Below, one piece after another: positions 9,976-37,439 of a DNA stretch of 64,000 nt. How positions within the stretch are numbered: position 1 is the first letter of the stretch; the number at the start of each line of letters is the position of its first letter. A model generated the notes under the pieces. That model searched no databases, had not been told where the DNA came from, and saw nothing but the letters and a program-made list of their open reading frames with translations. Position numbers and translations under genes: made by a program. The DNA comes from Paludibacteraceae bacterium (GTDB taxonomy: Bacteria; Bacillota_I; Bacilli_A; RFN20; CAG-826): assembly GCA_963621535.1 (NCBI GenBank), contig CAVFEQ010000001.1:18040-82039 (forward strand), given 5' to 3'.

Positions 9976-10003
9976 AGACCGCCATTAGTTGGCGGTCTTT
10001 TCT
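9976..10003. terminator. Hairpin between convergent genes (possible bidirectional terminator)
   Basis: GACCGCCA (9977-9984) / TGGCGGTC (9990-9997), followed by TTTTCTTT. The stop codon of the minus-strand gene sits in the loop. Confidence 0.6.
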
Positions 10004-11112
10004 TTGTCTTGGCCTAGGTTCACGAAGGCTTTTTTCTCAAGCTGGTAACAAGCTAGCAACTGGTCGAAATAGAGTTTTCTCATTCTCGCATAAGCCTCAC
10101 GTTGCTCAGCGCTTACGCTCGAGGTATAAAGCCCAGAGAAGATCTTCTCAAGGCGGAAGAAAGACTCATAGAGGTTAAGCACGGTGACGAGGTAGAAATA
10201 ATTCTTCTTCGAATAAATAAGCAATGGGGAGCTATGGGCGATTTCGCTCGACATCTCGTAGATCTTCGAATAGTTGGCTAAGCCCGCCACCCTTTCCACG
10301 CCGTCGCGGAAATTGAATTTGAAGCCTTCCACCTTCATGACCTCAGGCACGCCTAAAAGCCAGCCGTATTCGATGTAGCGCTTCATGTCTTTGCTCTTAA
10401 GCCCGACTTCGCGCATGCCTTCCTTGATCTCAAGGAAAATCGCATCGGTCTCTTCCTTTGAGGGGATGCCCCCGCGGAAAGCGACCGCGTAAGTTAGATG
10501 GCGGTTATAACGCTTCATGACCGGCTCACCGTATTTCACGATGATCTGCAAGATGCATTCATTCTCATGGAGGGTGCGCCAGGTGGAGAAAGCCTCGGTC
10601 TCGAAACCGTTTTCAAGCAAACTGGAAACGCATTTGGCCATTTGGAAGCCCTTGTTCATGATGTCGATGACTAGCGTCTCCGAAGGATTGCCCTGCTTAT
10701 AATGGGAAAGCATGCCCAAAATGAAATTGAGGTAGAGATCCAAAGTCGAAGAGGAAGGCGCGTAGCGGTTGGTAAAAGAGCCCATGCGGAAAGCCAGATG
10801 CTCATTGGTGAAGTATTTGTCCATGGCAATCGAGGCGATGGCTGAGATGTAGTCTTCCTTCGCCACGATCTCCTCTTGCTTCTCTTCTTTATGCGTTGCT
10901 AGATAAAAAGCATGCTCATTGGCGATATATAAGGCGAGTTCTGCGGGGTTAATGGACATTTTCGCGATGTCTTGAGAGATGCTCACGAGGCTTTCCACCC
11001 CGTCTTTGCAATAGCGGTAGCAGGCGTAAAGAAAAGAGTAATCAAGCTGAGCGGGGACGCCTAAAGCCTTCAGCATCTCAAAGTAGCGTTTTTTCTTCTC
11101 TTCCACTTCCAT
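9985..11112 (-). CDS. Hypothetical protein, 375 aa, helical, no family recognised
   Basis: Long uninterrupted ORF with host-like composition and no TM segment. Confidence 0.6.
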   Translation of the reverse strand: MEVEEKKKRYFEMLKALGVPAQLDYSFLYACYRYCKDGVESLVSISQDIAKMSINPAELALYIANEHAFYLATHKEEKQEEIVAKEDYISAIASIAMDKYFTNEHLAFRMGSFTNRYAPSSSTLDLYLNFILGMLSHYKQGNPSETLVIDIMNKGFQMAKCVSSLLENGFETEAFSTWRTLHENECILQIIVKYGEPVMKRYNRHLTYAVAFRGGIPSKEETDAIFLEIKEGMREVGLKSKDMKRYIEYGWLLGVPEVMKVEGFKFNFRDGVERVAGLANYSKIYEMSSEIAHSSPLLIYSKKNYFYLVTVLNLYESFFRLEKIFSGLYTSSVSAEQREAYARMRKLYFDQLLACYQLEKKAFVNLGQDKEKTAN

Positions 11113-12709: not shown

Positions 12710-13978
12710 TTACCGGATCCGATAAAACTGCTCGATATCGGAGATTTCCTTGATGATGTCCTTCGTGAGGACTTCCGCGCCCTCCTTAGTGATGAGCAGG
12801 TCGTCTTCGATGCGGATGCCGATGCCTTTTTCCTTTATATATAGGCCAGGCTCATCCGAGATGACGTTGCCTGGTTCCAAAGGATCGGTTTTGTTTCCGC
12901 CGGGATCGTGGGTGTCCAAACCAATTTGGTGGGAGACGCTATGATAATAGTATTTGTCGATCTCTTTTTTATCGGCGATGATCCCTTTGCTAAGGCATTC
13001 GCTGGCAAGATAGTTTTTCGCGAAGTCGTTGAGCTCGCCAAGGCTGATGCCGGGGCGCGCATAGGCGGCGACGGCTTTGTTGCAGCCAAGGACGATCTCA
13101 TAAATCGTCTTTTGCTCCGCGGAGAAGCAGCCTGAAACCGGGATGGTGCGGCTTACATCAGCGCAGTAATAGTTGTTTCTTGCGCCCAAATCCATAAGGA
13201 TGAGGCTTCCTTTTTCTACTCTTGCCTTCGGGAAGGGGTAATGCAAAGTGGTCGCGTTGACTCCGCTAGCCATGATGGTGTTGAACGCGAGTCCTTGATA
13301 GCCGTCATCATCGTCGCATACTTTAAGGAAAGTCGAGGCCAGTTCGTGTTCTTTTACGCCAGGATGGGCATTAGCCATGACGGCTTGGATCCCAAGGCGG
13401 GTGGTCGCGATGGCTGAACGGAGCTCAGCGATTTCCGCAGTCGATTTGACTAAGCGCTGCTTCACCAGAAGCGGATAGGCGTCGATGAAGCTAGAGATGT
13501 CATAACGATCGTCGAGCACCTCCATCTCCCCGTCGATCCCCATCTCTTCGGCGAGCTTTTGCTCCTTCTCCATGTCAAGGTAGACGTGTTTGATGGTCCC
13601 ATAGGGCGAGTCCTTACGTCCTAAAATCCCATCGAGCCGGGCATTCAAAGAGTTATTGATCAAGACGTTCCTCACCCCAGAGAGCAAATAGGCCTCTTGG
13701 GTCGTTAGGCGCTTCCCATACCACTTCTCCTTCGTCTCGTCGAAGGGGGAGACGAAAAGATATTCGCGCCTTTCCCCTTCGCTTTTTAGCAGAAGCAAAA
13801 CGCTATCAGGCTGATCGATGCCCGTAAGGTAATAGAAATTGCGGTTCACCTCAAAAGGGTATTCCTCGTCGTAGCTGCTTTTTTTACCGACCCCGGAGAA
13901 AAGAAGGGTAATGGAGTTATCCTTCACCTTATCAAGGAAGATTTGCCGGCGTTCGGCATATTCATTAGCTAGGATCAT
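12710..13978 (-). CDS. Xaa-Pro aminopeptidase/dipeptidase (M24B)
   Basis: 422 aa. Metal-ligand blocks LMDLGARNNYYCADVSRT, HSVSHQIGLDTHD, EPGLY and IRIEDD. Confidence 0.9.
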   Translation of the reverse strand: MILANEYAERRQIFLDKVKDNSITLLFSGVGKKSSYDEEYPFEVNRNFYYLTGIDQPDSVLLLLKSEGERREYLFVSPFDETKEKWYGKRLTTQEAYLLSGVRNVLINNSLNARLDGILGRKDSPYGTIKHVYLDMEKEQKLAEEMGIDGEMEVLDDRYDISSFIDAYPLLVKQRLVKSTAEIAELRSAIATTRLGIQAVMANAHPGVKEHELASTFLKVCDDDDGYQGLAFNTIMASGVNATTLHYPFPKARVEKGSLILMDLGARNNYYCADVSRTIPVSGCFSAEQKTIYEIVLGCNKAVAAYARPGISLGELNDFAKNYLASECLSKGIIADKKEIDKYYYHSVSHQIGLDTHDPGGNKTDPLEPGNVISDEPGLYIKEKGIGIRIEDDLLITKEGAEVLTKDIIKEISDIEQFYRIR

Positions 13979-14582
13979 GATTGATTTTCCTCACTTGTAT
14001 CACGTGTTCTTGAGAGAGAATCTCCTCTTGGCGAAGCAAGAGGCTATTTTCATCGAAGGGGATTGTACCATTGACGTAGAGACTCGCTTCAACTTCCATC
14101 GCAAATTGCTCGCTTTTTAATTCGTAGCCATGCTTTTTGGCTAGGCGCTTCACTTCTTCGTAACGGGAATAGCTTAGGCGCAGCTGAAACTTAAGGACGT
14201 CTGTTTCCTCCCCATAGGAAGCGTTGTCGAGCGCTTCTTTCGCGGCTTCTAGGAAGCAGCGTTTGAGCCGTCCCACCCCGAGTTTTGTCCCACCGAAATA
14301 ACGGGCCACCACAAGCAGGCAGCAATCGATGTTTCTTTCTTCAAGCATCAAAAGCATCGCCTTGCCGGCGCTCCCGCCGGGTTCGCCATCATCGCTGCTT
14401 TTCTCATACCCCTTCGCCCTTAAGGCATAGGGATAATGGTCCGCCTTTGGGTGGTCGGATTTAAAAGAAGCGTAAACCTTCTCAAAAGAAAGAGGATCAT
14501 CCAGCAGAAGAGCCTCTGCCTCGAAAGAGGAAGAAAGGAGAGAGGAAAACCCTTTTCCCTTCGCTAAAACTAGACAGCTCAT
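13965..14582 (-). CDS. yigZ: YigZ/IMPACT-family protein
   Basis: Hallmark SSDDGEPGGSAGKAML and ARYFGGTKLG. ATG 14582 forms an ATGA overlap with the stop of the 2370-aa gene. Its 3' end overlaps the pepP-like start by 14 nt. Confidence 0.85.
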   Translation of the reverse strand: MSCLVLAKGKGFSSLLSSSFEAEALLLDDPLSFEKVYASFKSDHPKADHYPYALRAKGYEKSSDDGEPGGSAGKAMLLMLEERNIDCCLLVVARYFGGTKLGVGRLKRCFLEAAKEALDNASYGEETDVLKFQLRLSYSRYEEVKRLAKKHGYELKSEQFAMEVEASLYVNGTIPFDENSLLLRQEEILSQEHVIQVRKINHDPS

Positions 14583-17500
14583 GCGCTCATCCTGATTTCG
14601 TTGGCAAGCGTCACATAGGAGAAAGCGGTAGAAACCCCGTTGACTAGCCCATCGCCAAAGGTGCATGGGAAATCACTCGTTCCATAGGCGGGGGTTAAAA
14701 GGGTCGCGTCGATAGGGCCATGGAAGAAATAGTCCTGATAGGCGCTCGCAGCAATGGAGCCTTTAAGAACGAGATAATCATAGGCATCAGAGGCGTAAAT
14801 GAGGTTCACAAGAGCTTTAGCAATGCCGCTCATGGTATCGAAATCCCCGCAAATCCCGTCTAACTTAGTCTTTTGCTCGCTATTAAGCAAGCAAGCAGTC
14901 AAAGACATGGAGGAAGTGTCCACGAACGGAGAAGAAGAGGAGATGGAAATCCCAGAGGAGAGCAAAGCCGTAAAGGCAACTCCCTTCCCTTCGCTAGAAG
15001 CTAAGGAAGAGAGATTAGCAAAACTATAGGCCTTGGCTGAGGAATCATAGCCATAGGCATCAAATGAGGTGGTGAGCAGGCTTCTTTGATCGTCCGTGTT
15101 AAGGAAAGCAAGGCGCTCTTTCTCCGGGGCGCTAGGCGAAGATAAGGAGATTGCGCCAAGCGAGTGAGAAGAAAGCTGGGCATAGCCTATTCTCTCCTCA
15201 ACCCTGTCGTTGAGGGCCCCGGCGATGAGATGTTTAGCGAAAACGGACGTCGAGGAAGCTTTTGTTTTGTCATAGCTCGGATCAACCTCGTTATCGATGT
15301 GGTAAGAGTAGGCAAGCTCGCTGGAAGAGAGGAAATCCGCATAACCGTTTTCTTCTTTGCCAAGGAGGCTAGAGGCATAACGGTAGAGAGCGGTCTTAGT
15401 CGACTCCTCAGAAGAAGAAGAGAAAGCGACATTCACAATTTCATGAACGATGTCGCTGTATTCGGCGCCAACTAAGGCGGTCTCGAAGAACTTGCCCTCC
15501 GCAAAGGGGTCATCCGAACCTTTGATGAGATTATCGATGGAGGAATAGCGTGCCGCAGCAGGGACGCTAGTCCCGTAGTCCTCAGCAAGCTTAGGTGCGT
15601 CCACCGCATCAAGCAGGTTCACCTTGACGCCCGAAGAAGCATCTTCCAAAGAGAACATCTTATAAAAGGAGTAGGCGCTTGAAGAGAAGGTTGCTGTCGC
15701 GGAGGAAACAGGGCGGAAATCCACATCGAAGCAAGACTCGGCGTATATGCTTGAGCCCATGACGATAGAGGCGATGCCATAAAGAGGGACGCCTGCCTCA
15801 TAGGCCTCTTTCAAGGCCGAGGCGCTTCCTTCAAAGGAATAATAGGTCCCGTCAGTTTTTCTTAGGGAGCAAAGGAACCATTCAAGAGCATCCGAATCCT
15901 TGTTCCCTTTCTCCAAACTGCCATAAGGCAAATAATATTTCGCCGTGTCGAACATATAAGAAAGCTCGCCGGGCTTTGAGATGGTGAACTTAAAATTGCA
16001 TCCGATTTTGCCTAGCCCGATATCCCATTTATTGGCGGTGACGTCGTAAGAAGAGGCGACGAGGCTGTTTAAGTTCGTCTCGTATGTCCCATCGCCATCC
16101 AAATCGCCCATAAGAGTCGAGACTTCGGTGCCGTCATAGGTAGAAGAAGAGAAGTAAAGATCCGCGTATTTCAAACCGTTCTCCAAGAAAGAGGCGTCGG
16201 AGACGAAGGTGTCACCAGTTCCAAGGCTTATCTTGGATGTCGAGAAAGTCTCAACGCCAAGGCCTTTGGTGCCGCTTTCCCCGGAAGTGAGGAATGAGGC
16301 GATGGTGGTCGCAAGCGCATCCTCGCACACCCTGCTTCTTCCCACAAGGCGCAGCAGCTCCATGGCTTTTCCTGGGCTCAGTTTCTTAAGGAATTCAGTC
16401 GAGGTGTCGACCTTGCCTTCGCTCGTGAGCAAATCGGATTCCTGCGCGATTCTAATCAGGCCGGATTTCCCTTCATCATCGGTCGTCAGTGTCTCGATTT
16501 CCACGCGCCAATCGCTATCTAAGACAAGGGCTTTGATCTTCCCGTGCAATTTAAGCTCGGCGGCAAGGCTTTCATCGTAGCCTGCATCAACAAGATAGGC
16601 AAAATCATGGTAGGCGTCGAAAGAGCGAGTGGCCAAACCGGAATTGTTGTAAACAAGATAAACCACCTGCTCGAAAACGGTGAGGTCGCTTGTGACCTTC
16701 GCATCGGCGGATGGCGTGTAGCTTTCGTTCTCCCATCCTTTGTTATAGGTGCTGGAATATTGGTTTACCCCCGTCTGATGGAAGAGGAGGGAATCATCTA
16801 ACTCCCAGAGGAATTGACGGAGCAAATAGGGGTCAATCGTGTCAAGCCTATCATCTTCCAAATCGTCTTTGTTGCTCTCGATGAGGTCGAGCAGATCGAC
16901 GAGCAGATCGATTTCGCTATCATCGTAGCCGCGCGAATAATCAATGGTCGCGGTCGCGTTCTCCGCATCGTAGAAATAGGGATAGTAATAATTCGTGAGG
17001 CTCAAATCGAGACCATCGACGGTGAGTTCGCCATTAGAGAGATATTTGCCTAGCGCGTTGATCGGGACGTCTTTAAGCAAAAGGCAATGCGAGAGGTCTT
17101 TTAGAAGTGAAGAAAGAGTAGAGCTCGACTTCGTGAGGGTCGCAAAATCGATTTCCCCTCCTTCAAGAAGAGAAAGAAGAGAATGCTCATTGAGGTTTGA
17201 TAAGAGATGAGAAAGCCCTCCATCACCTTTTCCGATGACCTCGTAAAATGCATTGGATTGCTGGTTATCTAAAGTGTATTTCTTGTAATTTCCATCATCG
17301 CCAATGCCTAAAGTCGAGGAGACGAGGTACTTGTATTTGGCCGAAGGGGTATCCGTGCCATATTTAATGTCTTTTGGAGAAGAGGCGGAGCAGATCAGAT
17401 CATCCAAACCCATCTGGGCGAGGATGTCGGTGAGGAAGGCCTGCGCGGAGGTGAGGTCCTTTTTCTCGCCGCTTTGCGCGGTTGTGGAATTGAATACGCG

Positions 17501-20500
17501 CGAAGCGTATAGCGGGGAAAGGGTCTTCTCCAAATCGAGTTTGGCGAGATCGGAAACCGAAGCGCTTCCTAGATCCGAGTATTCGGAAACGCTTGTGAGC
17601 AAGTTCGCTAAACAGGCGATTTCGTTGTCGTCGTATCTTTCATAGTCGGTACCCCCCTCATTTCTCATCACGAAGGGATCGCATAGCTCAAGGTCAGCTT
17701 GGAAGGAGGCGGGCAGGCCCGAAAGTCCGGAGACGGCCTTATCGATTTGAATGGGCAAAGCGCGATAAAGCAAATCGCTGGAATTGATCTGCTCTAGCAA
17801 AGACTTCACCGCGGAAAGCTTAGAGGAATCCAAAGAGGAAAGGTCTAAGGAGTCGCCAGAAAGGAGGCCGCTCTCCTGCACGATTTTCACGACGTCGCAG
17901 AAAACGTTGATTTCCTGATCCATGTCGCTTACCCCATCCACGAGCGTTGAGATGGTGATCCCGGGGGCATGGGCTGCGGAAATCTCATCATCTTTCTCTA
18001 GCCCCTCTCCGTAGAGGTTTGACTTAACGAGGATCGTCTTGAAGAAACTTCTTAGAAGCGTCTCATTCTTGCCTGCTCTTTGCGTAGTAAAGACATCAGA
18101 AGAGGAGATATCCTCAAGCAAGGGGCGCAGGCAATAGTCGACGTTGAGCTTGTCGATGGCCATCTTGTCCTCTTGGAATTGGCCATCCTCATCAAGCAGA
18201 CCGTAATAAGGATCATAGAGGGTATCCATGACATCGCAAAGATAGACGACCTGCTCCACCCTACTCTCCTTATCCAAATCGAAGAAGACCTCGGCGTTGG
18301 CAAGGGAGAGATCAAAGGAAGAAGAGGACATGGACGAGGAAAGATCGTCTAAGGAACGCGAGAGGGCATTCGCGATGAGGACCGAACCGAAGACGTCTGA
18401 GGAAGAAAGATTATTGAGCGTATCGCGCAGCAAGAGGAGCTTATCGCTAGAGAAGGAAGAAAGAGAAGAGAAGCCGCCAAGAGACTGCACGTTGCTTAGC
18501 ACTTTGCAGAAGAGCTCGATCTCCCCTCCTTCGTCATCATTCGTCCAATCCTCCACCTCTTTGAGGGCAAGACAGTTATTCACAAACGTAGAGCATTTCT
18601 CTTTTCTCGTGCTCAAATCATCGCTCGCGTCGAGATCATTTACCCCTTTGTCGGCGAAATAAGAAATTGAGGTATCGTCAAGCATCCCAAGGATCTTCGA
18701 GGAGAAGAACTCCGGGAACTTATAATCAACGCTCCCATCCTCTGCTTTCTTGTTGAAGATCTGGCTCTTCGCTAGGTTCGAGAAAAGATCCCTCGCCAGA
18801 GTCGGCGAGACCTTATTGATGTCGAAATCGCTGATATCAATGCCTTTGGTGGCCAAATCGACGATTTTTTTGATGGTCGCCCCTTCTTTCTCCCAGTCTT
18901 CCGCGCTAGTTAGATTCTTGAAGGTGATGCCCTCCTCCTCGCCTACTTCCAGCACCGAGGTGAAGTACTTGTCCATCGCGCTGCCGGCGACTGAGCGCAT
19001 CACCTCGGATTCCCCGATGCTCTTGAAGAGGGTTTCGATATCGATTCGCGCGAGGGCTCTCATCATCTCGTTGCCGCTAGAGCCCGCCAAAGACATGAGA
19101 TCGGTCAAAGGCACGGAAGTAAGGGAAGCGACGATGAGGTAATTCTCATGGGCTTTGACGATCTCTCCTCCAATGTCTCCACCCTGACGCTCGCTAGCTA
19201 AAATCACCCCATCAAGGGCGTCATCTTCTAGTTTGAAGTCCTCTAAACCCGCGGAGGAGAAAACGTAATTCAGCAAGGAGACGATGTTCGTGTTTCTCTT
19301 CCCGGAAGCGGCGTCAAAGGGATTGAGGATCTTCGAGCCGGCGAAGATGTCCAAGACGCGGACGAGAGTGTCTTTCTCCTCCAAGAGAGTGGTTGCCATA
19401 AGATGGGCGGAAGCCCCTTCGATGCCATTAAGCGCCAGAATCAGATCCCCCGAATAGGAGATGAGATTCAAAAGGAAGGAAAGCTCGTGCCCGAAGTCCT
19501 CGCAAGCGAAATCGATGTTCTTGATGCCAAATTCAGAGAGGGTATCCCGGAAATCCTCGAAATACTTCTCGGCCACCTGAGGCAAGGCTTCGGTCATGAT
19601 GAGGGAGTCATCGCTCCGCTCAAGCGAGTTTTGCAGGGCTTTTACTAGCTCAGGATCGATAGAGATCAGTTTCCCGTTTTTATAGGCCATGCCCGTGCCG
19701 TCTTCAATAAAAGCAAGCCCAGCCTCGCTAGAGGCGAAGTCCGCGGCAACGTCTAAAGTCGCGCCGAATTCCCGCTTATAGTCTTTAACGGTCCAGTCCT
19801 CATCCTCGATTTTCTTTTTCGTCTCGGTGAGTTTCAGGTCCATGTCCAAAGCGGTGCTGCCGGATTTTTCGATGAAAGTCACCATCGAAGGCAGCGCGTT
19901 CCCCACGAAAAAGGAATCAAACAAGCAATCCTTAGAATCCTCTTTGGGCTCGCCGCTTTCATCCCTTTCGCCGACGAGCAAATCGACATAATCATCCGCA
20001 TACTTCGCGCTGAGGGAAAGAAGGTTGCGGTAAGTCTCCTGCGAGGTTTCTTCGCTTGGTGGGTTCTGCACGAGGTCAAGGACATTGCTCACAACCTCAG
20101 GGGAGACATCGTTGATGGAATAGATCGTATCGTAAAGGAGATTGAACTCTTTCGTGTAGTTGAGCCCCACAAGCGCCTCGTAATCGATGTCCTTCTCATC
20201 TTCGCTCAGAGGCAAAAAATCAAGGATCGAAAGATCGGCGCGGCTTTCTTTCTCGAGTTCCGCTTTTCCAAGCTGGCTTAGCAGGCCCGCCATAAGATGG
20301 GAGAAAAGCGCGGAATCCTCGAATTCCTCGGTGAGTCTATGCATAGCCGCTTTCGCGTCGCGGTCGTTCCCGCTTGCGTCTTTGCCAGAGAAAACATACT
20401 GCAGCTGCGTCCAATCGAACACCGGGGTGGGAGATCCATTTTCGACGTCCACGACGCAATCGATGATGCCGGCATCGAGGATGTTCTCATAGATGCGGCT

Positions 20501-21691
20501 CATGGATTGGACGACCTCCGCCCAATCAACGTCCGCGTCAGAAAGATATTTGCAGGTTTCTTCCCCAAGAACGTTCTTGACCGCGTCGAGATTGACGGCC
20601 AAAGAGACGGCGAAAGGCAAAGCGCATTGGATGAGCTTGGTTTCGGAAAGGGCGTAAATGAGCTCCGGGATGGAGGAAGAGGAAAGGAGCAAATACCACC
20701 GGATGCCCTCGCTTCCATTCGCTGAAAGCAGCCCGGCGTTGATGGCTTGCGCGGAGATATTAGCAAGAGCGGAGATCTCCGAGATCAGGTCCGTTTTGAC
20801 CTCTTTTACCTCGCTTTGTGTCAAGAAGGAGATCAATTGCTGGTCGAAAGTAGTCGACCCATCCATCGAATTCCAGGAGAAGAAGGTCTTGGCGAAAGCG
20901 CTTTGGTCATAGACGCCGAGGATGTCGGTGATCATCGAGACGGTTTCGTTTTCCTTCGCACGCTCATCCTCGACTTTGAAGCGGCCATTCACCGAATTCA
21001 CGATGCTTGTGAAGGGGGAAAGAAGCATGCCTAAGCACGCCGCCCCGATAAGGAGCTCTTCAAAAGCCGAGACCAAACGAAGCTTTTTGATCTTTCTCCG
21101 TTCACGCGGAGTGAAGCGTTTGAAGGCAATGTGCCAAAGAAGCATGATCAGAAGCATGCCAAGGGTCGACAGAAGAAGTCCCCAAACGAAAATCAGCAGA
21201 AGTTTGATGAGCGAAGAGGCGAGGACGCTTGCGTAAGAGAGCATTCCCGAATAGCTCCCGTTCGCCCCAAACGCTTCAGCGACCTGGACGATCAAATCCT
21301 CCAGGCTCGTCTGCAGGGTCGTCCATTTCACGGAGATCGCATGCTCTACCCCATCTATCGTGAGGGCGAAATTCAGATTCGGGATGTTGAATCTTTGCAA
21401 ATCCATGCCCCCTAAAGCGTTTGCCTGCAGCCCTAAAGTGGCCAAGACGGCGGTGACCATGATCGCGAAAGAAATCAAGCGGTAGGTCCCATATTTCCAG
21501 CCCCTGAGAAGGCCTCTAAGGAAAACCAGCACAAGCACTCCGAGAACAAGAATGAAAAGCACGGTCAAGGCGATATTGAGGATGTTAAGAATGTTTTGCG
21601 TCTCGATAAGAGAGGCCAGTTTAAGCAAAGTTCTCATATACCTGAAATTATGCGGTAGAAACCCTTTTCGCGCAAGCGCGCGCACAGGCAT
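14579..21691 (-). CDS. Giant polytopic membrane protein, 2370 aa, no recognised domain
   Basis: Single uninterrupted 7.1-kb ORF. There are 4-5 hydrophobic helices in the first ~230 aa, then ~2100 aa of acidic, Ser/Leu-rich sequence. Alternative start at ATG 21637 (MRTLLK), because a TATAGT -10-like hexamer ends 2 nt before ATG 21691. Confidence 0.85.
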   Translation of the reverse strand: MPVRALARKGFLPHNFRYMRTLLKLASLIETQNILNILNIALTVLFILVLGVLVLVFLRGLLRGWKYGTYRLISFAIMVTAVLATLGLQANALGGMDLQRFNIPNLNFALTIDGVEHAISVKWTTLQTSLEDLIVQVAEAFGANGSYSGMLSYASVLASSLIKLLLIFVWGLLLSTLGMLLIMLLWHIAFKRFTPRERRKIKKLRLVSAFEELLIGAACLGMLLSPFTSIVNSVNGRFKVEDERAKENETVSMITDILGVYDQSAFAKTFFSWNSMDGSTTFDQQLISFLTQSEVKEVKTDLISEISALANISAQAINAGLLSANGSEGIRWYLLLSSSSIPELIYALSETKLIQCALPFAVSLAVNLDAVKNVLGEETCKYLSDADVDWAEVVQSMSRIYENILDAGIIDCVVDVENGSPTPVFDWTQLQYVFSGKDASGNDRDAKAAMHRLTEEFEDSALFSHLMAGLLSQLGKAELEKESRADLSILDFLPLSEDEKDIDYEALVGLNYTKEFNLLYDTIYSINDVSPEVVSNVLDLVQNPPSEETSQETYRNLLSLSAKYADDYVDLLVGERDESGEPKEDSKDCLFDSFFVGNALPSMVTFIEKSGSTALDMDLKLTETKKKIEDEDWTVKDYKREFGATLDVAADFASSEAGLAFIEDGTGMAYKNGKLISIDPELVKALQNSLERSDDSLIMTEALPQVAEKYFEDFRDTLSEFGIKNIDFACEDFGHELSFLLNLISYSGDLILALNGIEGASAHLMATTLLEEKDTLVRVLDIFAGSKILNPFDAASGKRNTNIVSLLNYVFSSAGLEDFKLEDDALDGVILASERQGGDIGGEIVKAHENYLIVASLTSVPLTDLMSLAGSSGNEMMRALARIDIETLFKSIGESEVMRSVAGSAMDKYFTSVLEVGEEEGITFKNLTSAEDWEKEGATIKKIVDLATKGIDISDFDINKVSPTLARDLFSNLAKSQIFNKKAEDGSVDYKFPEFFSSKILGMLDDTSISYFADKGVNDLDASDDLSTRKEKCSTFVNNCLALKEVEDWTNDDEGGEIELFCKVLSNVQSLGGFSSLSSFSSDKLLLLRDTLNNLSSSDVFGSVLIANALSRSLDDLSSSMSSSSFDLSLANAEVFFDLDKESRVEQVVYLCDVMDTLYDPYYGLLDEDGQFQEDKMAIDKLNVDYCLRPLLEDISSSDVFTTQRAGKNETLLRSFFKTILVKSNLYGEGLEKDDEISAAHAPGITISTLVDGVSDMDQEINVFCDVVKIVQESGLLSGDSLDLSSLDSSKLSAVKSLLEQINSSDLLYRALPIQIDKAVSGLSGLPASFQADLELCDPFVMRNEGGTDYERYDDNEIACLANLLTSVSEYSDLGSASVSDLAKLDLEKTLSPLYASRVFNSTTAQSGEKKDLTSAQAFLTDILAQMGLDDLICSASSPKDIKYGTDTPSAKYKYLVSSTLGIGDDGNYKKYTLDNQQSNAFYEVIGKGDGGLSHLLSNLNEHSLLSLLEGGEIDFATLTKSSSTLSSLLKDLSHCLLLKDVPINALGKYLSNGELTVDGLDLSLTNYYYPYFYDAENATATIDYSRGYDDSEIDLLVDLLDLIESNKDDLEDDRLDTIDPYLLRQFLWELDDSLLFHQTGVNQYSSTYNKGWENESYTPSADAKVTSDLTVFEQVVYLVYNNSGLATRSFDAYHDFAYLVDAGYDESLAAELKLHGKIKALVLDSDWRVEIETLTTDDEGKSGLIRIAQESDLLTSEGKVDTSTEFLKKLSPGKAMELLRLVGRSRVCEDALATTIASFLTSGESGTKGLGVETFSTSKISLGTGDTFVSDASFLENGLKYADLYFSSSTYDGTEVSTLMGDLDGDGTYETNLNSLVASSYDVTANKWDIGLGKIGCNFKFTISKPGELSYMFDTAKYYLPYGSLEKGNKDSDALEWFLCSLRKTDGTYYSFEGSASALKEAYEAGVPLYGIASIVMGSSIYAESCFDVDFRPVSSATATFSSSAYSFYKMFSLEDASSGVKVNLLDAVDAPKLAEDYGTSVPAAARYSSIDNLIKGSDDPFAEGKFFETALVGAEYSDIVHEIVNVAFSSSSEESTKTALYRYASSLLGKEENGYADFLSSSELAYSYHIDNEVDPSYDKTKASSTSVFAKHLIAGALNDRVEERIGYAQLSSHSLGAISLSSPSAPEKERLAFLNTDDQRSLLTTSFDAYGYDSSAKAYSFANLSSLASSEGKGVAFTALLSSGISISSSSPFVDTSSMSLTACLLNSEQKTKLDGICGDFDTMSGIAKALVNLIYASDAYDYLVLKGSIAASAYQDYFFHGPIDATLLTPAYGTSDFPCTFGDGLVNGVSTAFSYVTLANEIRMSA

Positions 21692-21744: not shown

Positions 21745-22623
21745 ATGGGAAACAAGGATCAATTCAGCCGGAAAACTTACTTCAGCAAAAGGACATGCCA
21801 AGAGTGTGGATGCAAGTGCGACCCCACCCTTCCTTCTTGCCCTAGCTGCGGGGCGAAAAACCCGGACAAGCGCTCACTGAGTTTCAAAAATTTCCTGCAT
21901 GTCGGCCCTTTTAAAGAGGCAGGTTTCATCGCGCTGGGGACTCTTGGCTTATCCATTTTGGTCTTTTTTATTCAGCTCATCCTCCTTTTGATCGCTAGGC
22001 CCTCCGACCAAAGCGCCTATCTAAGCAGCGGAGAGGGGCTTTTCTGGGCCTACGTCTTTGCCTATCCCCTGCTTTTCGTGGTAATGGGTCTATTGCTATG
22101 GAGCGACTGGAAAAAAACCTTGGCCTCCTTCAAAAACTGGAAGTCTTATGTCGCCGGATTTATCGGCTACGCAGCGATTATGGTTTTCTCCATCGTCTAC
22201 AATCTCATCATCACCGCGATTTATAAAGCCAATGGCATGACTATCCCTGGAGACAACGCGAATCAAAGCAACGTCATCTCGATGGTGCTTTATGGGCCGG
22301 TTGCTTGCGGCTTCGTCATCGGCCTGATCGGGCCGTTTACGGAGGAGCTCGCTTATCGGGTGGGGCTTTTCGGACTTGCTTCAAGGCTTGGCAAATGGGC
22401 CGGCTACGTCTTAGGGATCCTCGTGTTTGCCTTCATCCATTTCGACTTCACGAAAATCGGGAGCGGGGAAATCATCGCCGAGCTCATTTCGCTGCCTAAC
22501 TATCTAGTCTCAGGGGCGGTCCTTTGCTTCCTTTACGACAAATTCGGCATCTGCGGCTCTTGGGTAGGGCACGCGTTGAACAACCTGCAATCGGTCATCC
22601 TCATCGTCGTGCAAGGCAATTAA
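21745..22623 (+). CDS. CPBP (CAAX/Abi) family intramembrane glutamic endopeptidase with N-terminal zinc-ribbon
   Basis: CQECGCKC...CPSCG ribbon. Motifs FTEELAYRVGLF, FIHFD and HALNN in a polytopic protein. Confidence 0.85.
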   Translation: MGNKDQFSRKTYFSKRTCQECGCKCDPTLPSCPSCGAKNPDKRSLSFKNFLHVGPFKEAGFIALGTLGLSILVFFIQLILLLIARPSDQSAYLSSGEGLFWAYVFAYPLLFVVMGLLLWSDWKKTLASFKNWKSYVAGFIGYAAIMVFSIVYNLIITAIYKANGMTIPGDNANQSNVISMVLYGPVACGFVIGLIGPFTEELAYRVGLFGLASRLGKWAGYVLGILVFAFIHFDFTKIGSGEIIAELISLPNYLVSGAVLCFLYDKFGICGSWVGHALNNLQSVILIVVQGN

Positions 22624-22624
22624 A

Positions 22625-23539
22625 ATGAGCGAAACTTGGAGAGAAAAGGCGCAAATCCTTAACGAATTCGTCTTGAAGATCCTCGCCTTGATCTTCATGA
22701 CCATCGATCATGTCGGCTTGTTTTTGCTCGCTTATTTAGGGAGCGCGAACGCCTGTGGAATCGTTTTCCGCACCCTAGGGAGAATCGCTTTCCCCCTCTT
22801 CGCCTTCATGCTGGCGGAAGGGATAAGAAAAAGCCACCACAAAGAGAGATACCTCCTCCGCCTCGCTTCGATGTGGGCGCTCATCGCCATTGCCCAAACC
22901 GTTCTTTTTTACGGCTTTGGCTTCAATGCGATCAAATCTTCGACAAACGCCTTTGCCGATCTTCTCGTTGGCGGGACATTTCTTTATTGTCTCAATTACT
23001 TGCCTAGCAAAAAGAAGGCTTTTGCCTTGATTCCTTTGCTGATTGCCTTAGGCTCCTACGCGTTTCAGGTTTGCTGCATGAATATCCCTGAGCTTTCCAA
23101 TGCCCCCTATTTCTATTCCCCGGGCTATTCCTTATTCGGCTTTGCGCTCATCGCGGGCTTTTATTATGCGAAAAACATCGTCGACAAGATCTCTTCGAAA
23201 TATCTAGAAGGCTCGGGCCAATCCCTTGAGGCGTTCCAAGAGAGCCGTTCCTACCAAGGCTTGCTCAACATGCTTTGCGCATGCGTGCTGTTCCTAGTCA
23301 CGATCATCTGCTGGGGCATCTCCTATATCCCAAACGTCTCGCTTGACGTGTTGCTGATGCACGCAAGCCAAAGCGGGGAAGTCGGCCAATCCTGGTGCCT
23401 GCTCGCCATTTTGCCGATCCTTCTTTTCAACGGCAAAAGAGGGCAAGACAGCAAAGCCTTCCGCGTGTCCACCTATGTTTATTATCCGATGCATATCGCT
23501 ATCATCTTCGCGATCTTTTACGTAATATTTGAACTATAA
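22625..23539 (+). CDS. TraX-family membrane protein
   Basis: LKILALIFMTIDHVGLF N-terminal signature in a polytopic protein. Starts 1 nt after the CPBP stop. Confidence 0.75.
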   Translation: MSETWREKAQILNEFVLKILALIFMTIDHVGLFLLAYLGSANACGIVFRTLGRIAFPLFAFMLAEGIRKSHHKERYLLRLASMWALIAIAQTVLFYGFGFNAIKSSTNAFADLLVGGTFLYCLNYLPSKKKAFALIPLLIALGSYAFQVCCMNIPELSNAPYFYSPGYSLFGFALIAGFYYAKNIVDKISSKYLEGSGQSLEAFQESRSYQGLLNMLCACVLFLVTIICWGISYIPNVSLDVLLMHASQSGEVGQSWCLLAILPILLFNGKRGQDSKAFRVSTYVYYPMHIAIIFAIFYVIFEL

Positions 23540-23551
23540 GGAGAAACAATC

Positions 23552-23854
23552 ATGGTAAAAATCATCCATAGCGCAGACGAGTTCGCCAAAGAGATCGAAA
23601 ACGAAGCCATCGTGGACTTCAACGCGACCTGGTGCGGGCCCTGCCAAATGCTTAAGCCCATCATCGAAAAAGTCGCCGAAGAGCATCCAGAGCTCAACGT
23701 TCTTTCTCTTGACGTGGACGAAGTCCCCTCCCCTTGCGAGAAGCTGGGCGTCTTCTCAATCCCGACTATCATCGTCTTCAAAGACGGCAAAGAGACCAAG
23801 AGGAACGTAGGCTACCTTTCAGAAGCAAACCTAAAGAAGTTCTTGGGGATCTAA
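23552..23854 (+). CDS. trxA: Thioredoxin
   Basis: 100 aa. Active site WCGPC. Confidence 0.95.
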   Translation: MVKIIHSADEFAKEIENEAIVDFNATWCGPCQMLKPIIEKVAEEHPELNVLSLDVDEVPSPCEKLGVFSIPTIIVFKDGKETKRNVGYLSEANLKKFLGI

Positions 23855-25756: not shown

Positions 25757-27106
25757 ATGGACGACAATAAAAAACTCGGCGCGAAAAAATGGATTGCTTT
25801 CATTTTGCTTGGCTTAGCGGGGCAGCTCGCTTGGGCCATCGAGAACAACTACATCAATCTTTGGGTCTATTCCCAATCCGGCCGCGCGGACTTCATCACT
25901 TGGATGACCGTAGGAAGCGCAATCGTCGCCACCGTCACGACTTTCCTCATGGGCGCCTTGTCTGATCGTCTTGGCAAAAGACGGGTCTTCATCGCCGGCG
26001 GATACACCATTTGGGGATTTTTCGTCTTCGCCTTTGCTCTTGCCTCTTTGCGAAATGGAGTGAAGCTATGCGGGGAAGGGGCAAATGCCCTTCTTTGGGT
26101 TGGCATCATGAACGTGATCGTCGACTGCGTGATGACCTTCCTTGGTTCAACGGGGAATGATGCTTGCTTCAACGCGATGGTCACCGAGCAAACCAACGAG
26201 AAAAATCGCCCGTTCGTCGAAACCATCCTTTCCGTTTTGCCTCTTGTCGCCTTGATCATGATGATGGGGATAGGGATGATCTTCGGAGTGCCCGGCAGCC
26301 AGCAAGAAAACGAAACAATCGCCGAATACGCCTCGCGCATCGCAACCCCTTGGCTTTATTTCTTTTTGGTATGTGGGATTCTTACCACGCTTGTTGGGAT
26401 CGCCGGCTTCTTCATTCTCCCAAAAGACAAAGCCATCAAGGACCAAAGAAGCGGCTACTTCAAAAACCTCGCTTATGGCTTCTTGCCTAGCTCAATCAAG
26501 AAGCACCCCCGGTTTTACATCGCTCTCCTCGCTTTTCTTTTCTTCAACATCGCCGTCGATTCGTTCATGCCCTACTACATGGTCTATTTCCAAAGCTTCG
26601 CCGAACTTAATTTCTATCTGGCGATGGGAATCATCGTCGCCGTGGCAATCGTCGGTTCCATCGCCATCGGAGCTTTCCTTGATAAGATCGGCCATCTTAA
26701 GGTCTTGATACCGGCGATTCTGCTGATGGGAAGCGGCGCGCTTCTGCTTTTCCTAAGCCAAGCGTCATGGGTTTTGATCTTCGGAGGCTCTTTGCTGATG
26801 CTAGGCTATCTCGTGGGGACCGCGGTTTTAGGCGCGGAAATCCGCGACCAAACCCCTAAAGGGAAAGAGGGCTCCCTACAAGGCGTGCGCATGATCTTCG
26901 CGGTTATGCTGCCCATGATCATCGGCAGCAATCTCTCCTTAGCAATCTTCCAGCAGCCTGGCCTAGACGCCTATGGGCAGACGACGAAAACGCCAGATCA
27001 TTGGATGTTCCTGGTGACCTGCATTTCGGCTTTATTGACCATTCTTCCATCCCTTTGGCTTATCTTGGCGAATAGAAAAGGCGAAGAAAAAGGGAATCAG
27101 GACTGA
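25757..27106 (+). CDS. MFS transporter
   Basis: 449 aa, about 12 hydrophobic segments. Loop 2-3 motif GALSDRLGKRR. Confidence 0.85.
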   Translation: MDDNKKLGAKKWIAFILLGLAGQLAWAIENNYINLWVYSQSGRADFITWMTVGSAIVATVTTFLMGALSDRLGKRRVFIAGGYTIWGFFVFAFALASLRNGVKLCGEGANALLWVGIMNVIVDCVMTFLGSTGNDACFNAMVTEQTNEKNRPFVETILSVLPLVALIMMMGIGMIFGVPGSQQENETIAEYASRIATPWLYFFLVCGILTTLVGIAGFFILPKDKAIKDQRSGYFKNLAYGFLPSSIKKHPRFYIALLAFLFFNIAVDSFMPYYMVYFQSFAELNFYLAMGIIVAVAIVGSIAIGAFLDKIGHLKVLIPAILLMGSGALLLFLSQASWVLIFGGSLLMLGYLVGTAVLGAEIRDQTPKGKEGSLQGVRMIFAVMLPMIIGSNLSLAIFQQPGLDAYGQTTKTPDHWMFLVTCISALLTILPSLWLILANRKGEEKGNQD

Positions 27107-28884
27107 AACTCGACGTTTGCTTCGCCCGCCCCGATGTTTTTCCATTCGGAGGGGTGCTCGACCTCGCTTTCGAAGCGTTCTTCGCTCATTTCGACGGTGA
27201 TCTTATGGCCGTCCTGTCCCAATTTGGAGCAACCATAGAAAGCGCGCGAGCCAATGGAGAGAAGGCTTGAAGGAAGGGTAAAACCGGACAGGGAATAAAG
27301 CTGAGAAAAAGCGAAGGAATCCGCCTTTTGCAGGCCGGGGATTTCAAGCGTTTCCAAAGATCTATTCCCGCGGAAGGCGTTAGAGGAAACGTATTTAACA
27401 GAGCGAGGCAGGCTAACTTTCGTAAGGGAAGAGAAATAGCTTTCTGTCCCATCCCCGAATTTTTTGATCCCCACGAGCTCGAAAGCTCCAACGCCAGGGA
27501 AGGCATTAAGATCAAGCAAATCGCTTTCAACAAGCTCGCTGCTGCTGCGGCTAGAGGAGGGGACGAACTTATCCATCAAATAGCCACCCCATTCTTCGGA
27601 ATATTCGTAGGTGAATTGATCGCCTTGCTCGCCGTTGCCGTCTAGGGATTTAGGAACAATGACAGGATACAAAGAAAGGTCTTTGTCCGCTGCGCTTGAA
27701 GGATCGACCACGTCAGATTTGTCTACGTCGTTTTTTTCTATGCTCCAAAGCCCGGTGAAAATCTCGTCGCTGGAGAGAAGGCTATCATCGATCACCGTTA
27801 GAAGAACATCCCCAAGGGAGGATCCATAAGAAACCGATTTTTCGGCGATTAACGTTTCGTCGTTGCTCAGGAAGGTAATCTTGAATTCTTCAGGCGAGAC
27901 CTCGAAAACAGGGGATAAAGTACAATCGTAAAGAATGTGTTCACAATCCACGGGCTTGTCTTTTAGCTCGTCTATCCCCTCCCCATAGGTGCCCTCCCAT
28001 CCTTTAAAGGTGTAAACCTTGTGATCGGAGGTGTAATCAGGCAAAACCTTCGTGACTTTGCTCCCGTAGATAACGTTCTCGGTTTCGCTAAGTATTTCGC
28101 TCTTAGTTGAATCTTTGTAAAAGGAGACCGTATAAGACTTCGATTCAGGGCCTGCGAAAAAGGCGGTCAGCTTCAAATCGTCTTTGATTTCAATGTCGGT
28201 TTCAAAGAGCTCGTCCAGGGTATAGGTTCCGCCATCATATTCGTATCCGGCGAAAGCATAGGTTTGGTAATAATATTTCGGCAGCGGGTAATCCAAAGTA
28301 AGGGCGGTTTTAGCCGCTTCTATAGAGCCATATTCTTTCATTAAAGCATCGCTTAGTTTAGTTCCGTGTTCAACGGAGGCTGTATAGATAGAGGTGTAAT
28401 CCGCGTTTTCAATAGTCACGTTATACGTGTTGATTTTTTCGCTAAAATGAGCAAAAACTGCGCAATTCCCCTTTATTTCTTTCAAATCAACCTTAGTGTT
28501 GGCTAAATTTTCCGCAGTTGAAGATGGCTCATCCGTCGTTTCTTCGTCCAAAGCGGTTTCTTCATAAAAGCCAACCCAGGAATCCCAAGTATAGGCGTAG
28601 CCTTCTTTCGTTCGGCGGCTGTTCTCATAGTCTATCGCCTTGCCGTTTTCATCTTTCACGAGGCTAGTCAAGCGCGCGGTTTTATTCGCGCCACCTTTGA
28701 CGACATAGCCTTCGCCGATTTTCGTTGCCAAATTTTTATTGAGCTTGCCGGGTTCATATTCGATGTCGTCATAATCCGTGTAAAACTCAATGGTATAAAC
28801 ATCCGCATCCTGCTTAACGTTGCAAGATAACAAGGCAGAAGAGAGAACAAGAAGTCCAAATGCGGCGCGGAGTTTTGCGTTCAT
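27097..28884 (-). CDS. Surface lipoprotein with Listeria/Bacteroides-type repeats and C-terminal BspA-type leucine-rich repeats
   Basis: Signal peptide with lipobox LLSC. Repeats end in YTFKGWEG / FAGYEYDG / FTGLWS. The C-terminus has LRR units (SVKYVSSNAFRGNRSLETLEIP..., LLSIGSRAFYGCSKL). Confidence 0.75.
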   Translation of the reverse strand: MNAKLRAAFGLLVLSSALLSCNVKQDADVYTIEFYTDYDDIEYEPGKLNKNLATKIGEGYVVKGGANKTARLTSLVKDENGKAIDYENSRRTKEGYAYTWDSWVGFYEETALDEETTDEPSSTAENLANTKVDLKEIKGNCAVFAHFSEKINTYNVTIENADYTSIYTASVEHGTKLSDALMKEYGSIEAAKTALTLDYPLPKYYYQTYAFAGYEYDGGTYTLDELFETDIEIKDDLKLTAFFAGPESKSYTVSFYKDSTKSEILSETENVIYGSKVTKVLPDYTSDHKVYTFKGWEGTYGEGIDELKDKPVDCEHILYDCTLSPVFEVSPEEFKITFLSNDETLIAEKSVSYGSSLGDVLLTVIDDSLLSSDEIFTGLWSIEKNDVDKSDVVDPSSAADKDLSLYPVIVPKSLDGNGEQGDQFTYEYSEEWGGYLMDKFVPSSSRSSSELVESDLLDLNAFPGVGAFELVGIKKFGDGTESYFSSLTKVSLPRSVKYVSSNAFRGNRSLETLEIPGLQKADSFAFSQLYSLSGFTLPSSLLSIGSRAFYGCSKLGQDGHKITVEMSEERFESEVEHPSEWKNIGAGEANVEFQS

Positions 28885-32368: not shown

Positions 32369-32699
32369 TGGTATTCCCTCGTTTCGTGCGCGTATATATT
32401 AAAGGAATTAGCAAAAGGCGGACCAAGAAATTCAATTCCCCTCAAAAAACAAGGAAAACCTTTCCAAAAAAAGAGGGGATAGGTGTATGCGTTTTTGAAA
32501 ACCGTTGTTAACGCGTTAAATATTAAATTGACGATATTTAAATTCTCTTATGGCATAAATGTGCGCTAAATAGTTTCGACACACTCGAAAGTATTTTGAT
32601 TCTACAAATCGTAGAATCGTCCTTCTACGCATGCGATATGCGCATGAGAGTGCGTTTGACAATAGTTTGCTTAAAATCCTAGCGTCGAGATTTGCGACC

Positions 32700-33797: not shown

Positions 33798-33814
33798 ATT
33801 TGAAAGGAGCGATT

Positions 33815-37438: not shown

Positions 37439-37439
37439 A

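Follow-up and report, generated by a model that had tools for sequence, protein, structure and literature searches.

What is the role of the longest open reading frame (ORF) of this locus, a giant gene whose product carries no name? The DNA analysed (the window) is a 64-kb stretch, positions 18,040 to 82,039 of contig CAVFEQ010000001.1 (assembly GCA_963621535.1). An earlier note on this DNA had singled out a 7.1-kb ORF as the largest in the window, which the ORF list and the translation confirm, and had proposed that it encodes a membrane-anchored giant scaffold. The membrane-anchored giant with a helical repeat was recovered in AlphaFold2 (AF2) models and in profile comparisons (hhalign); the scaffold role is a matter of interpretation. 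The best explanation found is that the giant protein serves a wall-less cell as surface scaffold, coat or adhesin, and that its maturation may involve a CPBP-family protease and a TraX-family protein encoded next to it; this explanation is held with about as much doubt as confidence. On sequence evidence, what is new here is an unnamed protein family, a new repeat module and a strongly conserved gene partnership.

The giant ORF is a real gene. A protein search gave 45 full-length homologues that are 97-24% identical to its product; nearly all are 2100-2770 aa long, and two are about 1550-1590 aa. No name and no Pfam domain is attached to any of them. The earlier note had allowed for a chimeric ORF; since many independent assemblies hold full-length homologues, the ORF is not chimeric. 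The true start is probably M19 (ATG at 21637-21635), which gives a protein of 2352 aa and 257 kDa. M19 is the likelier start because M1 has no upstream Shine-Dalgarno sequence (AGG precedes M19), a 97%-identical homologue is called from M19 and the N-terminal extension is missing in distant homologues. Antisense ORFs of 100-140 aa lie inside the gene (e.g. 20922-21236, plus strand) and are 60-80% identical in relatives; this conservation is most simply the shadow of the conserved coding strand, not evidence of genes. A scan for sigma-70 promoters and terminators gave counts that did not exceed those expected from shuffling, and is not taken as evidence.

By sequence comparison, the giant protein belongs to an undescribed, unnamed family that is so far known only from uncultured Bacilli of gut and rumen. 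A profile of the N-terminal 410 residues, searched exhaustively with HMMER, gave 739 clusters (50% identity) at E<=1e-3, of which 186 reach E<=1e-30. Among the best 150 clusters, most are 1600-3000 aa long; a minority are shorter and may be fragments. A pattern scan of one genome per GTDB species gave 67 loci, and a pattern scan from 6 sequences gave a further three in a subfamily of 23-29% GC (related loci are numbered L below). The informative records are labelled Candidatus (Ca.) Enteromonas, Candidatus Alloenteromonas pullistercoris, Tenericutes bacterium or uncultured Mollicutes bacterium; many further loci are found in metagenome-assembled genomes labelled 'Bacilli bacterium'. The sources are human, chicken, rumen and horse gut. 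Members have in common a first transmembrane (TM) helix with a Gly-rich loop behind it (invariant G60 and G64), the motif P-[FL]-[TS]-x-h-h-N where TM4 ends, an array of acidic ~105-residue modules with the core h..h..S.hh, and divergent CPBP, TraX and thioredoxin (Trx) genes. No family name is carried by the hits of two name-reporting protein searches or by 10 further cluster representatives; the Mycoplasma names Gli349/Gli521, P1 and Lmp are likewise absent from those hits and representatives, no comparison with the reference sequences having been made.

Family members range from about 1260 to >2800 aa. For the shortest ones (about 1260-1340 aa), the alignment with the window protein is confined to its first ~1000-1200 residues. 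Length polymorphism is seen between L040, L058, L061, L066, L072 and L073 and the loci L033 and L042. This polymorphism, together with the end of the short forms near residues 1000-1200, implies that modules and the C-terminal head have been gained or lost.

Ca. Enteromonas is the GTDB genus UBA733 of order RFN20 and family CAG-826 (PMC8035907), and family CAG-826 of RFN20 is predicted to be peptidoglycan-deficient and sortase-less (PMC10868615). A wall-less host is thus plausible, some related loci being labelled Ca. Enteromonas or Alloenteromonas; the earlier guess of a wall-less cell fits this prediction, which is made at the level of the lineage. Some assemblies of the type 'H07xxx-L1_cleanbin' that carry the gene block (L012, L015, L034, L041, L057) are titled as unrelated taxa (Parasutterella excrementihominis, Bacteroidales, Lachnospiraceae, Faecalibacillus, Roseburia hominis). 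Their contigs are clearly collinear with Ca. Enteromonas-like genomes, a sign that the bins are mislabelled or contaminated.

Most of the giant protein is a tandem repeat. The soluble part is acidic and rich in Ser and Leu, as had been noted from the translation (S 12.6%, L 12.5%, D 9.4%; net charge -184; isoelectric point (pI) 4.26; 232 kDa). At least ten copies of a loose motif had been reported in it, with eight example strings, and had been taken for an ancient internal repeat, probably helical. All eight strings are found (residues 776, 885, 966, 1088, 1188, 1295, 1387 and 1526). The exact pattern occurs 5 times versus 0.23 expected and its relaxed core, h..h..S.hh, 10 times versus 1.5 expected; each count was reached in 0/2000 shuffles. 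In an alignment of 45 homologues, 110-residue sub-alignments matched each other by hhalign with probabilities up to 98% (E 9e-15) over residues about 780-1830. The family profile of the soluble part also aligned with itself off the diagonal: over 1210 columns at an offset of about 190-270 (E 1.4e-36), over 930 columns at about 405-480 (E 2.7e-23) and over 1152 columns at about 85-150 (E 1.9e-18), the last being the basic period. The loose motif marks a true tandem repeat, which is helical in the AF2 models.

Chaining of the shortest offset and reading of the sequence delimited about 15 modules, more than the ten copies first counted. Their anchors are residues 264, 351, 460, 593, 696, 786, 895, 976, 1098, 1198, 1305, 1397, 1536, 1634 and 1786. 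Modules are 81-152 residues long, typically ~105; the last one, as delimited, has only 48. The core is a helix, a conserved Ser and a second helix. Among 46 sequences the anchor Ser is kept in all (46/46) at 264, 696, 976 and 1198 and in at least 38 at eight further anchors; it is less well kept at 351, 460, 1536 (mostly Cys) and 1786. In the AF2 models it marks the exact point where a helix of 12-16 residues gives way to the next one, and it is read here as a probable helix cap. The ~105-residue module, with its Ser-capped helices and a hairpin, seems to represent a new type of helical repeat. A short module hidden Markov model (HMM; 41 residues) recovered just 8/15 modules of the giant protein; the correlation between module count and length (r = 0.50) is therefore not used as evidence.

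Two AF2 models, each from alignments of 36 sequences, cover residues 1-1200 and 1171-2370. The first (mean predicted local distance difference test score (pLDDT) 78.5; predicted template modelling score (pTM) 0.54) is nearly all helical, with short beta-hairpins in many modules. The second (mean pLDDT 88.3, pTM 0.77) is helical to about residue 1815; a beta-sandwich and then a mixed alpha/beta domain follow. Modelling in segments followed by Foldseek had been recommended in the earlier note: it gave a helical repeat and no significant structural match. Against the PDB, neither half had a match at E<=1e-3. The best PDB matches are alpha-solenoids (BIRC6, 3.8e-3; RanBP5, 1.6e-2; exportin-5, HUWE1, CAND1, beta-catenin), with TM-scores <=0.14; those of the beta domain are small nucleoplasmin-like sandwiches (E>0.3). 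The C-terminal half had no match at E<=1e-3 in the viral library BFVD, and the family profile had zero matches at E<=1 among PDB sequences. The fold class is therefore given as a helical repeat solenoid with no identifiable relative.

Known families were also searched for. The full giant protein matches zero Pfam or NCBIfam families at curated cut-offs; with the PDB and Foldseek results, this agrees with the first impression of a bulk without recognisable motif. At E<=1, 13 distant (low-GC) members gave scattered single Pfam matches only, none to Colicin_V or EI24. The following identities were considered and rejected. CvpA/Colicin_V (PF02674): when the N-terminal segments of 9 members were searched at E<=10, 2/9 matched (E 0.019 and 0.087; best 15.4 bits versus a cut-off of 29.3), over model positions 4-59 only, and hhalign of the N-terminal family profile against E. 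coli CvpA gave a probability of 0.4%. CysZ/EI24 (PF07264): 1/9 members matched (E 1.2e-5, 25.9 bits versus a gathering score of 32), the others not at all. HEAT/ARM repeats: no HEAT or Arm Pfam match, a period of ~105 residues, and Foldseek values of E>=3.8e-3 and TM<=0.14. LPXTG/sortase giant repeat protein: no LPxTG, no C-terminal hydrophobic segment and no repeat Pfam in the giant protein. Lipoprotein: the N-terminus runs into a four-TM bundle and has no lipobox. MYXO-CTERM-type substrate: neither a TM helix nor an Arg-rich tail is found at the C-terminus (...FSYVTLANEIRMSA).

Four to five TM helices had been counted in the first ~230 residues; four, possibly five, are found. Hydropathy confines the hydrophobic segments to the first 231 residues (about 37-58, 72-92, 149-190 and 206-231). 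The order is TM1, the loop RGLLRGWKYGTYR, TM2, an outer loop, a long TM3, the loop KRFTPRERRKIKKLR and TM4. This domain is the most conserved portion of the giant protein: G60, G64, T69, S160, W186, F190, E211 and P226 are invariant and H187 is nearly so. The motif P-[FL]-[TS]-x-h-h-N, the most widespread short motif of the family (179/210 members), lies at the predicted outer end of TM4, i.e. at the junction of anchor and ectodomain.

The charges of the loops (46 sequences) bear on the topology. Of the two predicted cytoplasmic loops, the 13-residue one after TM1 has a mean of 3.5 K+R and zero acidic residues, and the 17-residue one before TM4 a mean of 8.7 K+R (range 6-14). The predicted outer loop between TM2 and TM3 (54 residues, containing a beta-hairpin) has means of 2.2 K+R and 5.4 D+E. 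A single helix spans residues 147-193 in the AF2 model. The TM3 stretch of the low-GC subfamily contains an invariant Pro, so that no more than ~11 hydrophobic residues remain for a second span. The positive-inside rule and a single-helix TM3 thus point to a predicted topology with the N-terminus out, four spans and the C-terminus out, TM4 acting as the signal-anchor of the ectodomain. The composition of the bulk (S+T+N 22.2%, R 2.2%, net charge -8.6 per 100 residues) resembles that of lipobox-bearing or signal-anchored proteins of the window (27097-28884, 33815-37438, 37440-40910, 45770-47479: S+T+N 22-25.5%, R 1.4-2.3%, net charge -4.7 to -8.1 per 100), not that of its presumed cytoplasmic proteins (means: S+T+N 15.9%, R 4.0%, net charge -2.4 per 100). 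This resemblance supports the outside placement independently.

The giant gene is under purifying selection over its entire length. Against L082, the locus of a 97%-identical relative, the ratio of nonsynonymous to synonymous substitution rates (dN/dS) is 0.20 overall, 0.09 in the TM domain, 0.12-0.18 in the repeats and 0.31 in the C-terminal region. The conservation profile repeats this gradient from N- to C-terminus, and the C-terminal region is the least conserved and fastest-evolving portion of the protein. For the neighbouring genes dN/dS against L082 is 0.02 (pepP), 0.06 (CPBP), 0.15 (yigZ) and 0.28 (TraX). In L005 the giant protein is 47% identical, versus 90% for GlpK and 73% for PepP. 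The giant protein diverges much faster than its neighbours; this is counted as surface-type evolution.

The gene partnership is strongly conserved as well. The whole region is collinear in close relatives, and the order Trx<-TraX<-CPBP<-|->giant->YigZ(->PepP) is found in essentially every locus with enough flank, over 23-61% GC and down to a giant-protein identity of about 21-26%. Genes beyond this block vary among lineages. The CPBP-TraX-Trx trio begins 53-107 nt from the giant gene. TraX is upstream and divergent in 55/56 loci; a CPBP match is present in every locus retaining its upstream flank, <=600 nt from the giant start in 43/56. The CPBP protein of the window has an N-terminal Cys4 zinc ribbon and intact catalytic motifs (EExxxR, FxxxH, HxxxN). 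Its orthologues keep EExxxR in 70/70, FxxxH in 69/70 and HxxxN/D in 69/70, and most carry the Cys4 zinc ribbon.

On the 3' side, the ATGA shared by the giant gene and yigZ and the 14-nt overlap of yigZ with pepP, from which co-translation of the three genes had been proposed, are both seen in the sequence. The start/stop coupling to yigZ is real and recurs even at 21-32% identity; the same 4-nt overlap is found in L002, L005, L010, L080 and L082. Most genomes show this coupling, with an Xaa-Pro aminopeptidase gene next in line. The trio of giant gene, yigZ and pepP is not general, L084 lacking yigZ and pepP. E. coli also pairs yigZ with a Xaa-Pro peptidase gene, as pepQ-yigZ.

Three contexts of TraX homologues were examined. 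A 41%-identical homologue on a 1.41-Mb contig is surrounded by the same block. A 30%-identical one, in L084 (GCA_031556235.1, 33% GC), is accompanied by CPBP and by a giant family member of 1997 aa (E 8e-211); no yigZ or pepP lies 3' of that giant gene, and a class-I-like methyltransferase gene (L084:8863-10008) lies between CPBP and TraX. A shorter, 27%-identical one is found in a conjugative-element context, with no giant gene. From these contexts, the core association is the giant gene with CPBP, TraX and Trx; YigZ and PepP are frequent, not obligatory. The synteny with yigZ/pepP that the earlier note suggested looking for does recur; the more persistent partners, CPBP, TraX and thioredoxin, had been missed.

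Features of the giant gene, its product and the conserved block in the window (residue numbers are those of the giant protein)
Feature	Position	Strand	Basis and remarks
Xaa-Pro aminopeptidase gene pepP	12710..13978	-	Pfam and NCBIfam (AMP_N + Peptidase_M24); 14-nt overlap with yigZ
yigZ, IMPACT/UPF0029 family, 205 aa	13965..14582	-	Pfam and NCBIfam
ATGA, overlap of giant stop and yigZ start	14579..14582	-	Sequence
Giant gene ORF, 7,113 nt, 2370 codons from M1	14579..21691	-	TGA stop at 14579-14581
C-terminal non-repeat region, residues 1816-2370	14582..16246	-	AF2, conservation, dN/dS 0.31
Beta-sandwich, residues about 1818-1915	15947-16240	-	AF2; then mixed alpha/beta domain to the C-terminus
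Repeat region, residues ~246-1815	16247..20956	-	~15 tandem alpha-helical modules; hhalign and AF2
Motif P-F-T-S-I-V-N, residues 226-232	20996..21016	-	P226 invariant, N232 nearly so
N-terminal membrane domain, residues 37-231	20999..21583	-	Hydropathy, conservation, AF2 helices, dN/dS 0.09
CPBP (Rce1-like) intramembrane protease gene	21745..22623	+	Pfam; divergent, 53 nt from M1 of the giant gene
TraX-family polytopic membrane protein gene, putative acetyl/acyl-transferase	22625..23539	+	Pfam
Thioredoxin gene, WCGPC, no signal peptide	23552..23854	+	Translation, Pfam in related loci; last gene of the conserved block

How would such a protein work? According to the preferred explanation, a surface scaffold, the four-helix membrane domain, with both termini outside, would anchor an ectodomain of 232 kDa and pI 4.3. 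The ~15 helical modules would stack into a long solenoid or rod that ends in the beta-sandwich plus alpha/beta head. Standing out from the bare membrane, the rod would serve as a structural scaffold, a coat or a spacer; its tip would be adhesive or variable, the fastest-evolving distal head facing the environment. Elsewhere the same role is filled by wall-anchored giant repeat proteins. The CPBP protease, the TraX acyltransferase and thioredoxin would probably act on the giant protein or on its membrane domain, by processing or by modification.

Enzymes of the CPBP and TraX families give this last step some precedent. Myxosortase, a CPBP enzyme, processes surface proteins (PMC11980579); CPBP proteins of S. 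aureus influence surface-protein display and lipoprotein tailoring (PMC7387801); TraX is the F-pilin N-acetylase according to its Pfam description (PF05857). By analogy with these precedents, a dedicated maturation role of CPBP and TraX is a reasonable hypothesis. In its strongest form the giant protein, CPBP, TraX and thioredoxin would make up a system dedicated to the maturation of surface proteins in wall-less gut Bacilli, equivalent in function to the sortase or myxosortase systems; this strong form is considered unlikely. CPBP would cut the giant protein at the P-F-T-x-h-h-N junction or at an N-terminal leader, TraX would acetylate or acylate the new terminus or conserved serines of the modules, and the processed, membrane-associated acidic coat would replace the lost wall and teichoic-acid layer.

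Several points weigh against a surface scaffold. The topology is deduced from the positive-inside rule and from composition, and two TM helices within residues 149-190, if present, would put the bulk in the cytoplasm. The downstream partners YigZ and PepP are cytoplasmic proteins. The giant protein has 22 Cys and its gene adjoins that of a cytoplasmic thioredoxin, both atypical of surface layers. The strong conservation of the membrane domain and its invariant polar E211 suggest that it is more than an anchor. Gene order in reduced genomes can be partly a matter of inertia, not of function. No significant structural analogue pointing to a specific activity was obtained with Foldseek.

Some of these points would suit a cytoplasmic, membrane-tethered cortex or cytoskeletal scaffold, an acidic solenoid beneath the membrane of the wall-less cell that organises shape, division or protein complexes, comparable in role to the terminal-organelle proteins of Mycoplasma or the cytoskeletal ribbons of Spiroplasma. 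The hydrophobic stretch at 149-190, of 38-42 residues, could be a helical hairpin, giving five TM helices and a C-terminus inside; the 22 Cys and the coupled or adjacent genes of cytoplasmic proteins (yigZ, pepP, thioredoxin) would be at home there, and the alpha-solenoids listed by Foldseek are typically intracellular scaffolds. However, five TM helices would place the loop KRFTPRERRKIKKLR outside with its 8.7 K+R, against the positive-inside rule in 46/46 sequences, and neither the single AF2 helix at 147-193 nor the ~11 hydrophobic residues left after the invariant Pro of the low-GC subfamily agrees with a hairpin. The export-like composition of the bulk and the fast divergence, which rises toward the C-terminus, also argue for the outside. 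A cytoplasmic scaffold is judged unlikely.

The functional core could instead be the four-TM domain itself (a transporter, a channel or an enzyme distantly like CvpA or CysZ/EI24), the repeat array being an accessory protein-binding or regulatory platform. The highest conservation and lowest dN/dS are found in this domain, which contains the invariant polar or aromatic T69, S160, W186 and E211; the sub-threshold matches to Colicin_V (2/9) and EI24/CysZ (1/9) lie on the same side, as do the shortest members, which keep the TM domain and ~1000 residues without the C-terminal half of the window protein. Yet no family reaches its Pfam threshold, the probability of a CvpA relationship by hhalign is negligible, and 0/13 low-GC members match Colicin_V or EI24. 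All complete family genes checked encode at least ~1000 residues of acidic repeats; the array is therefore not dispensable. This alternative is regarded as improbable. An artefact (a chimeric or mis-assembled ORF, or a long open frame without coding function) deserves almost no credence, its sole oddity being the uncertain start codon, against collinear full-length homologues in dozens of independent assemblies of 23% to 61% GC, purifying selection throughout and confident AF2 models.

Other genes of the window are probably also concerned with the surface. Three consecutive ORFs of 388, about 1207 and 1156 aa (32631-40910, plus strand) have no Pfam match and are followed by an HTH_3 gene. In the 388-aa product a hydrophobic segment lies near residue 85. 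Both large products are acidic and rich in S, T and N, that of ~1207 aa with a signal-anchor (MKTNKSQKHLSPKKKALLFNSGLFLALFG...) and that of 1156 aa with a lipobox-like AFSMASC. These ORFs probably encode further surface proteins. The functional tie between this cassette and the giant gene that the earlier note had put forward found no support: its ORFs are not paralogues, show no similarity to the giant-family profile and did not turn up next to the giant gene in those related loci that were annotated gene by gene. Lipobox-bearing proteins are also encoded at 27097-28884 (minus strand; BspA-type leucine-rich repeats) and at 45770-47479 (minus strand; S41 peptidase). In L083 a longer LRR_5 protein flanks the conserved block. 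The genome seems to display proteins mainly as lipoproteins, like Mollicutes. On the other side of the block, a DUF5677 protein (375 aa; 9985-11112, minus strand) is encoded 3' of glpK; its position is kept in close relatives and lies outside the block conserved at greater depth.

The gut microbiomes of humans, livestock and poultry harbour uncultured Bacilli of RFN20 and related Mollicutes-like groups. How an envelope is built without peptidoglycan, teichoic acids or sortases is the question on which the giant protein bears. It is the largest product of the window, is found lineage-wide in the sample and has no name, domain or structural relative, and is therefore a prime candidate for a major component of the envelope or host interface; it could also be a phage receptor. 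Through their fixed pairing with the giant gene, an intact CPBP and a non-conjugative TraX gain a concrete, testable candidate substrate.

Known systems resemble this one in part. Eukaryotic alpha-solenoids (HEAT repeats of importin-beta and exportins, ARM repeats of beta-catenin, BIRC6, HUWE1) share the helical-repeat superhelix and are the sole Foldseek retrievals for the helical part; their modules differ (~40 residues and 2-3 helices for HEAT/ARM, versus ~105 residues and 5-6 helices here), as does the cellular context. With CvpA, and with CvpA-fused periplasmic proteases such as MarP of M. tuberculosis, the giant protein would share four TM helices, a first cytoplasmic loop (after TM1) rich in Gly and Arg, and a large C-terminal extension outside the cytoplasm; its family gives sub-threshold matches only and is not a member on present evidence. 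In the F-pilin system, as here, TraX would act near a membrane protein with a predicted outside N-terminus, encoded here by the adjoining gene; the setting here is non-conjugative, and the conjugative TraX examined is 27% identical and has no giant neighbour. With myxosortase MrtX and the CPBP proteins of S. aureus, the locus shares an intact CPBP genetically tied to a membrane-embedded putative surface protein, and a conserved motif at the membrane/ectodomain junction. MYXO-CTERM substrates end in a tag (Cys motif, TM helix, Arg-rich stretch) that the giant protein lacks, and the motif of the giant protein follows an N-terminal TM bundle; cleavage is hypothetical here, and the candidate substrate is a single adjacent one versus dozens for MrtX.

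By analogy, the giant protein may work most like the giant helical-repeat surface proteins of staphylococci such as Ebh. Ebh/Mmp-type proteins are made of FIVAR-GA modules of about 126 residues, and Ebh has been proposed to contribute to adhesion and to the integrity of the envelope. There is no relationship in sequence or Pfam, the giant protein having no FIVAR, GA or DUF1542 match. The anchor is an N-terminal four-TM domain here and a C-terminal TM helix in Ebh; the modules carry a beta-hairpin and a Ser-cap motif here, and the host is predicted to be wall-free. What the two would have in common is the design: a very large, membrane-anchored, acidic protein whose many tandem all-helical modules of ~100 residues stack as an extracellular rod.

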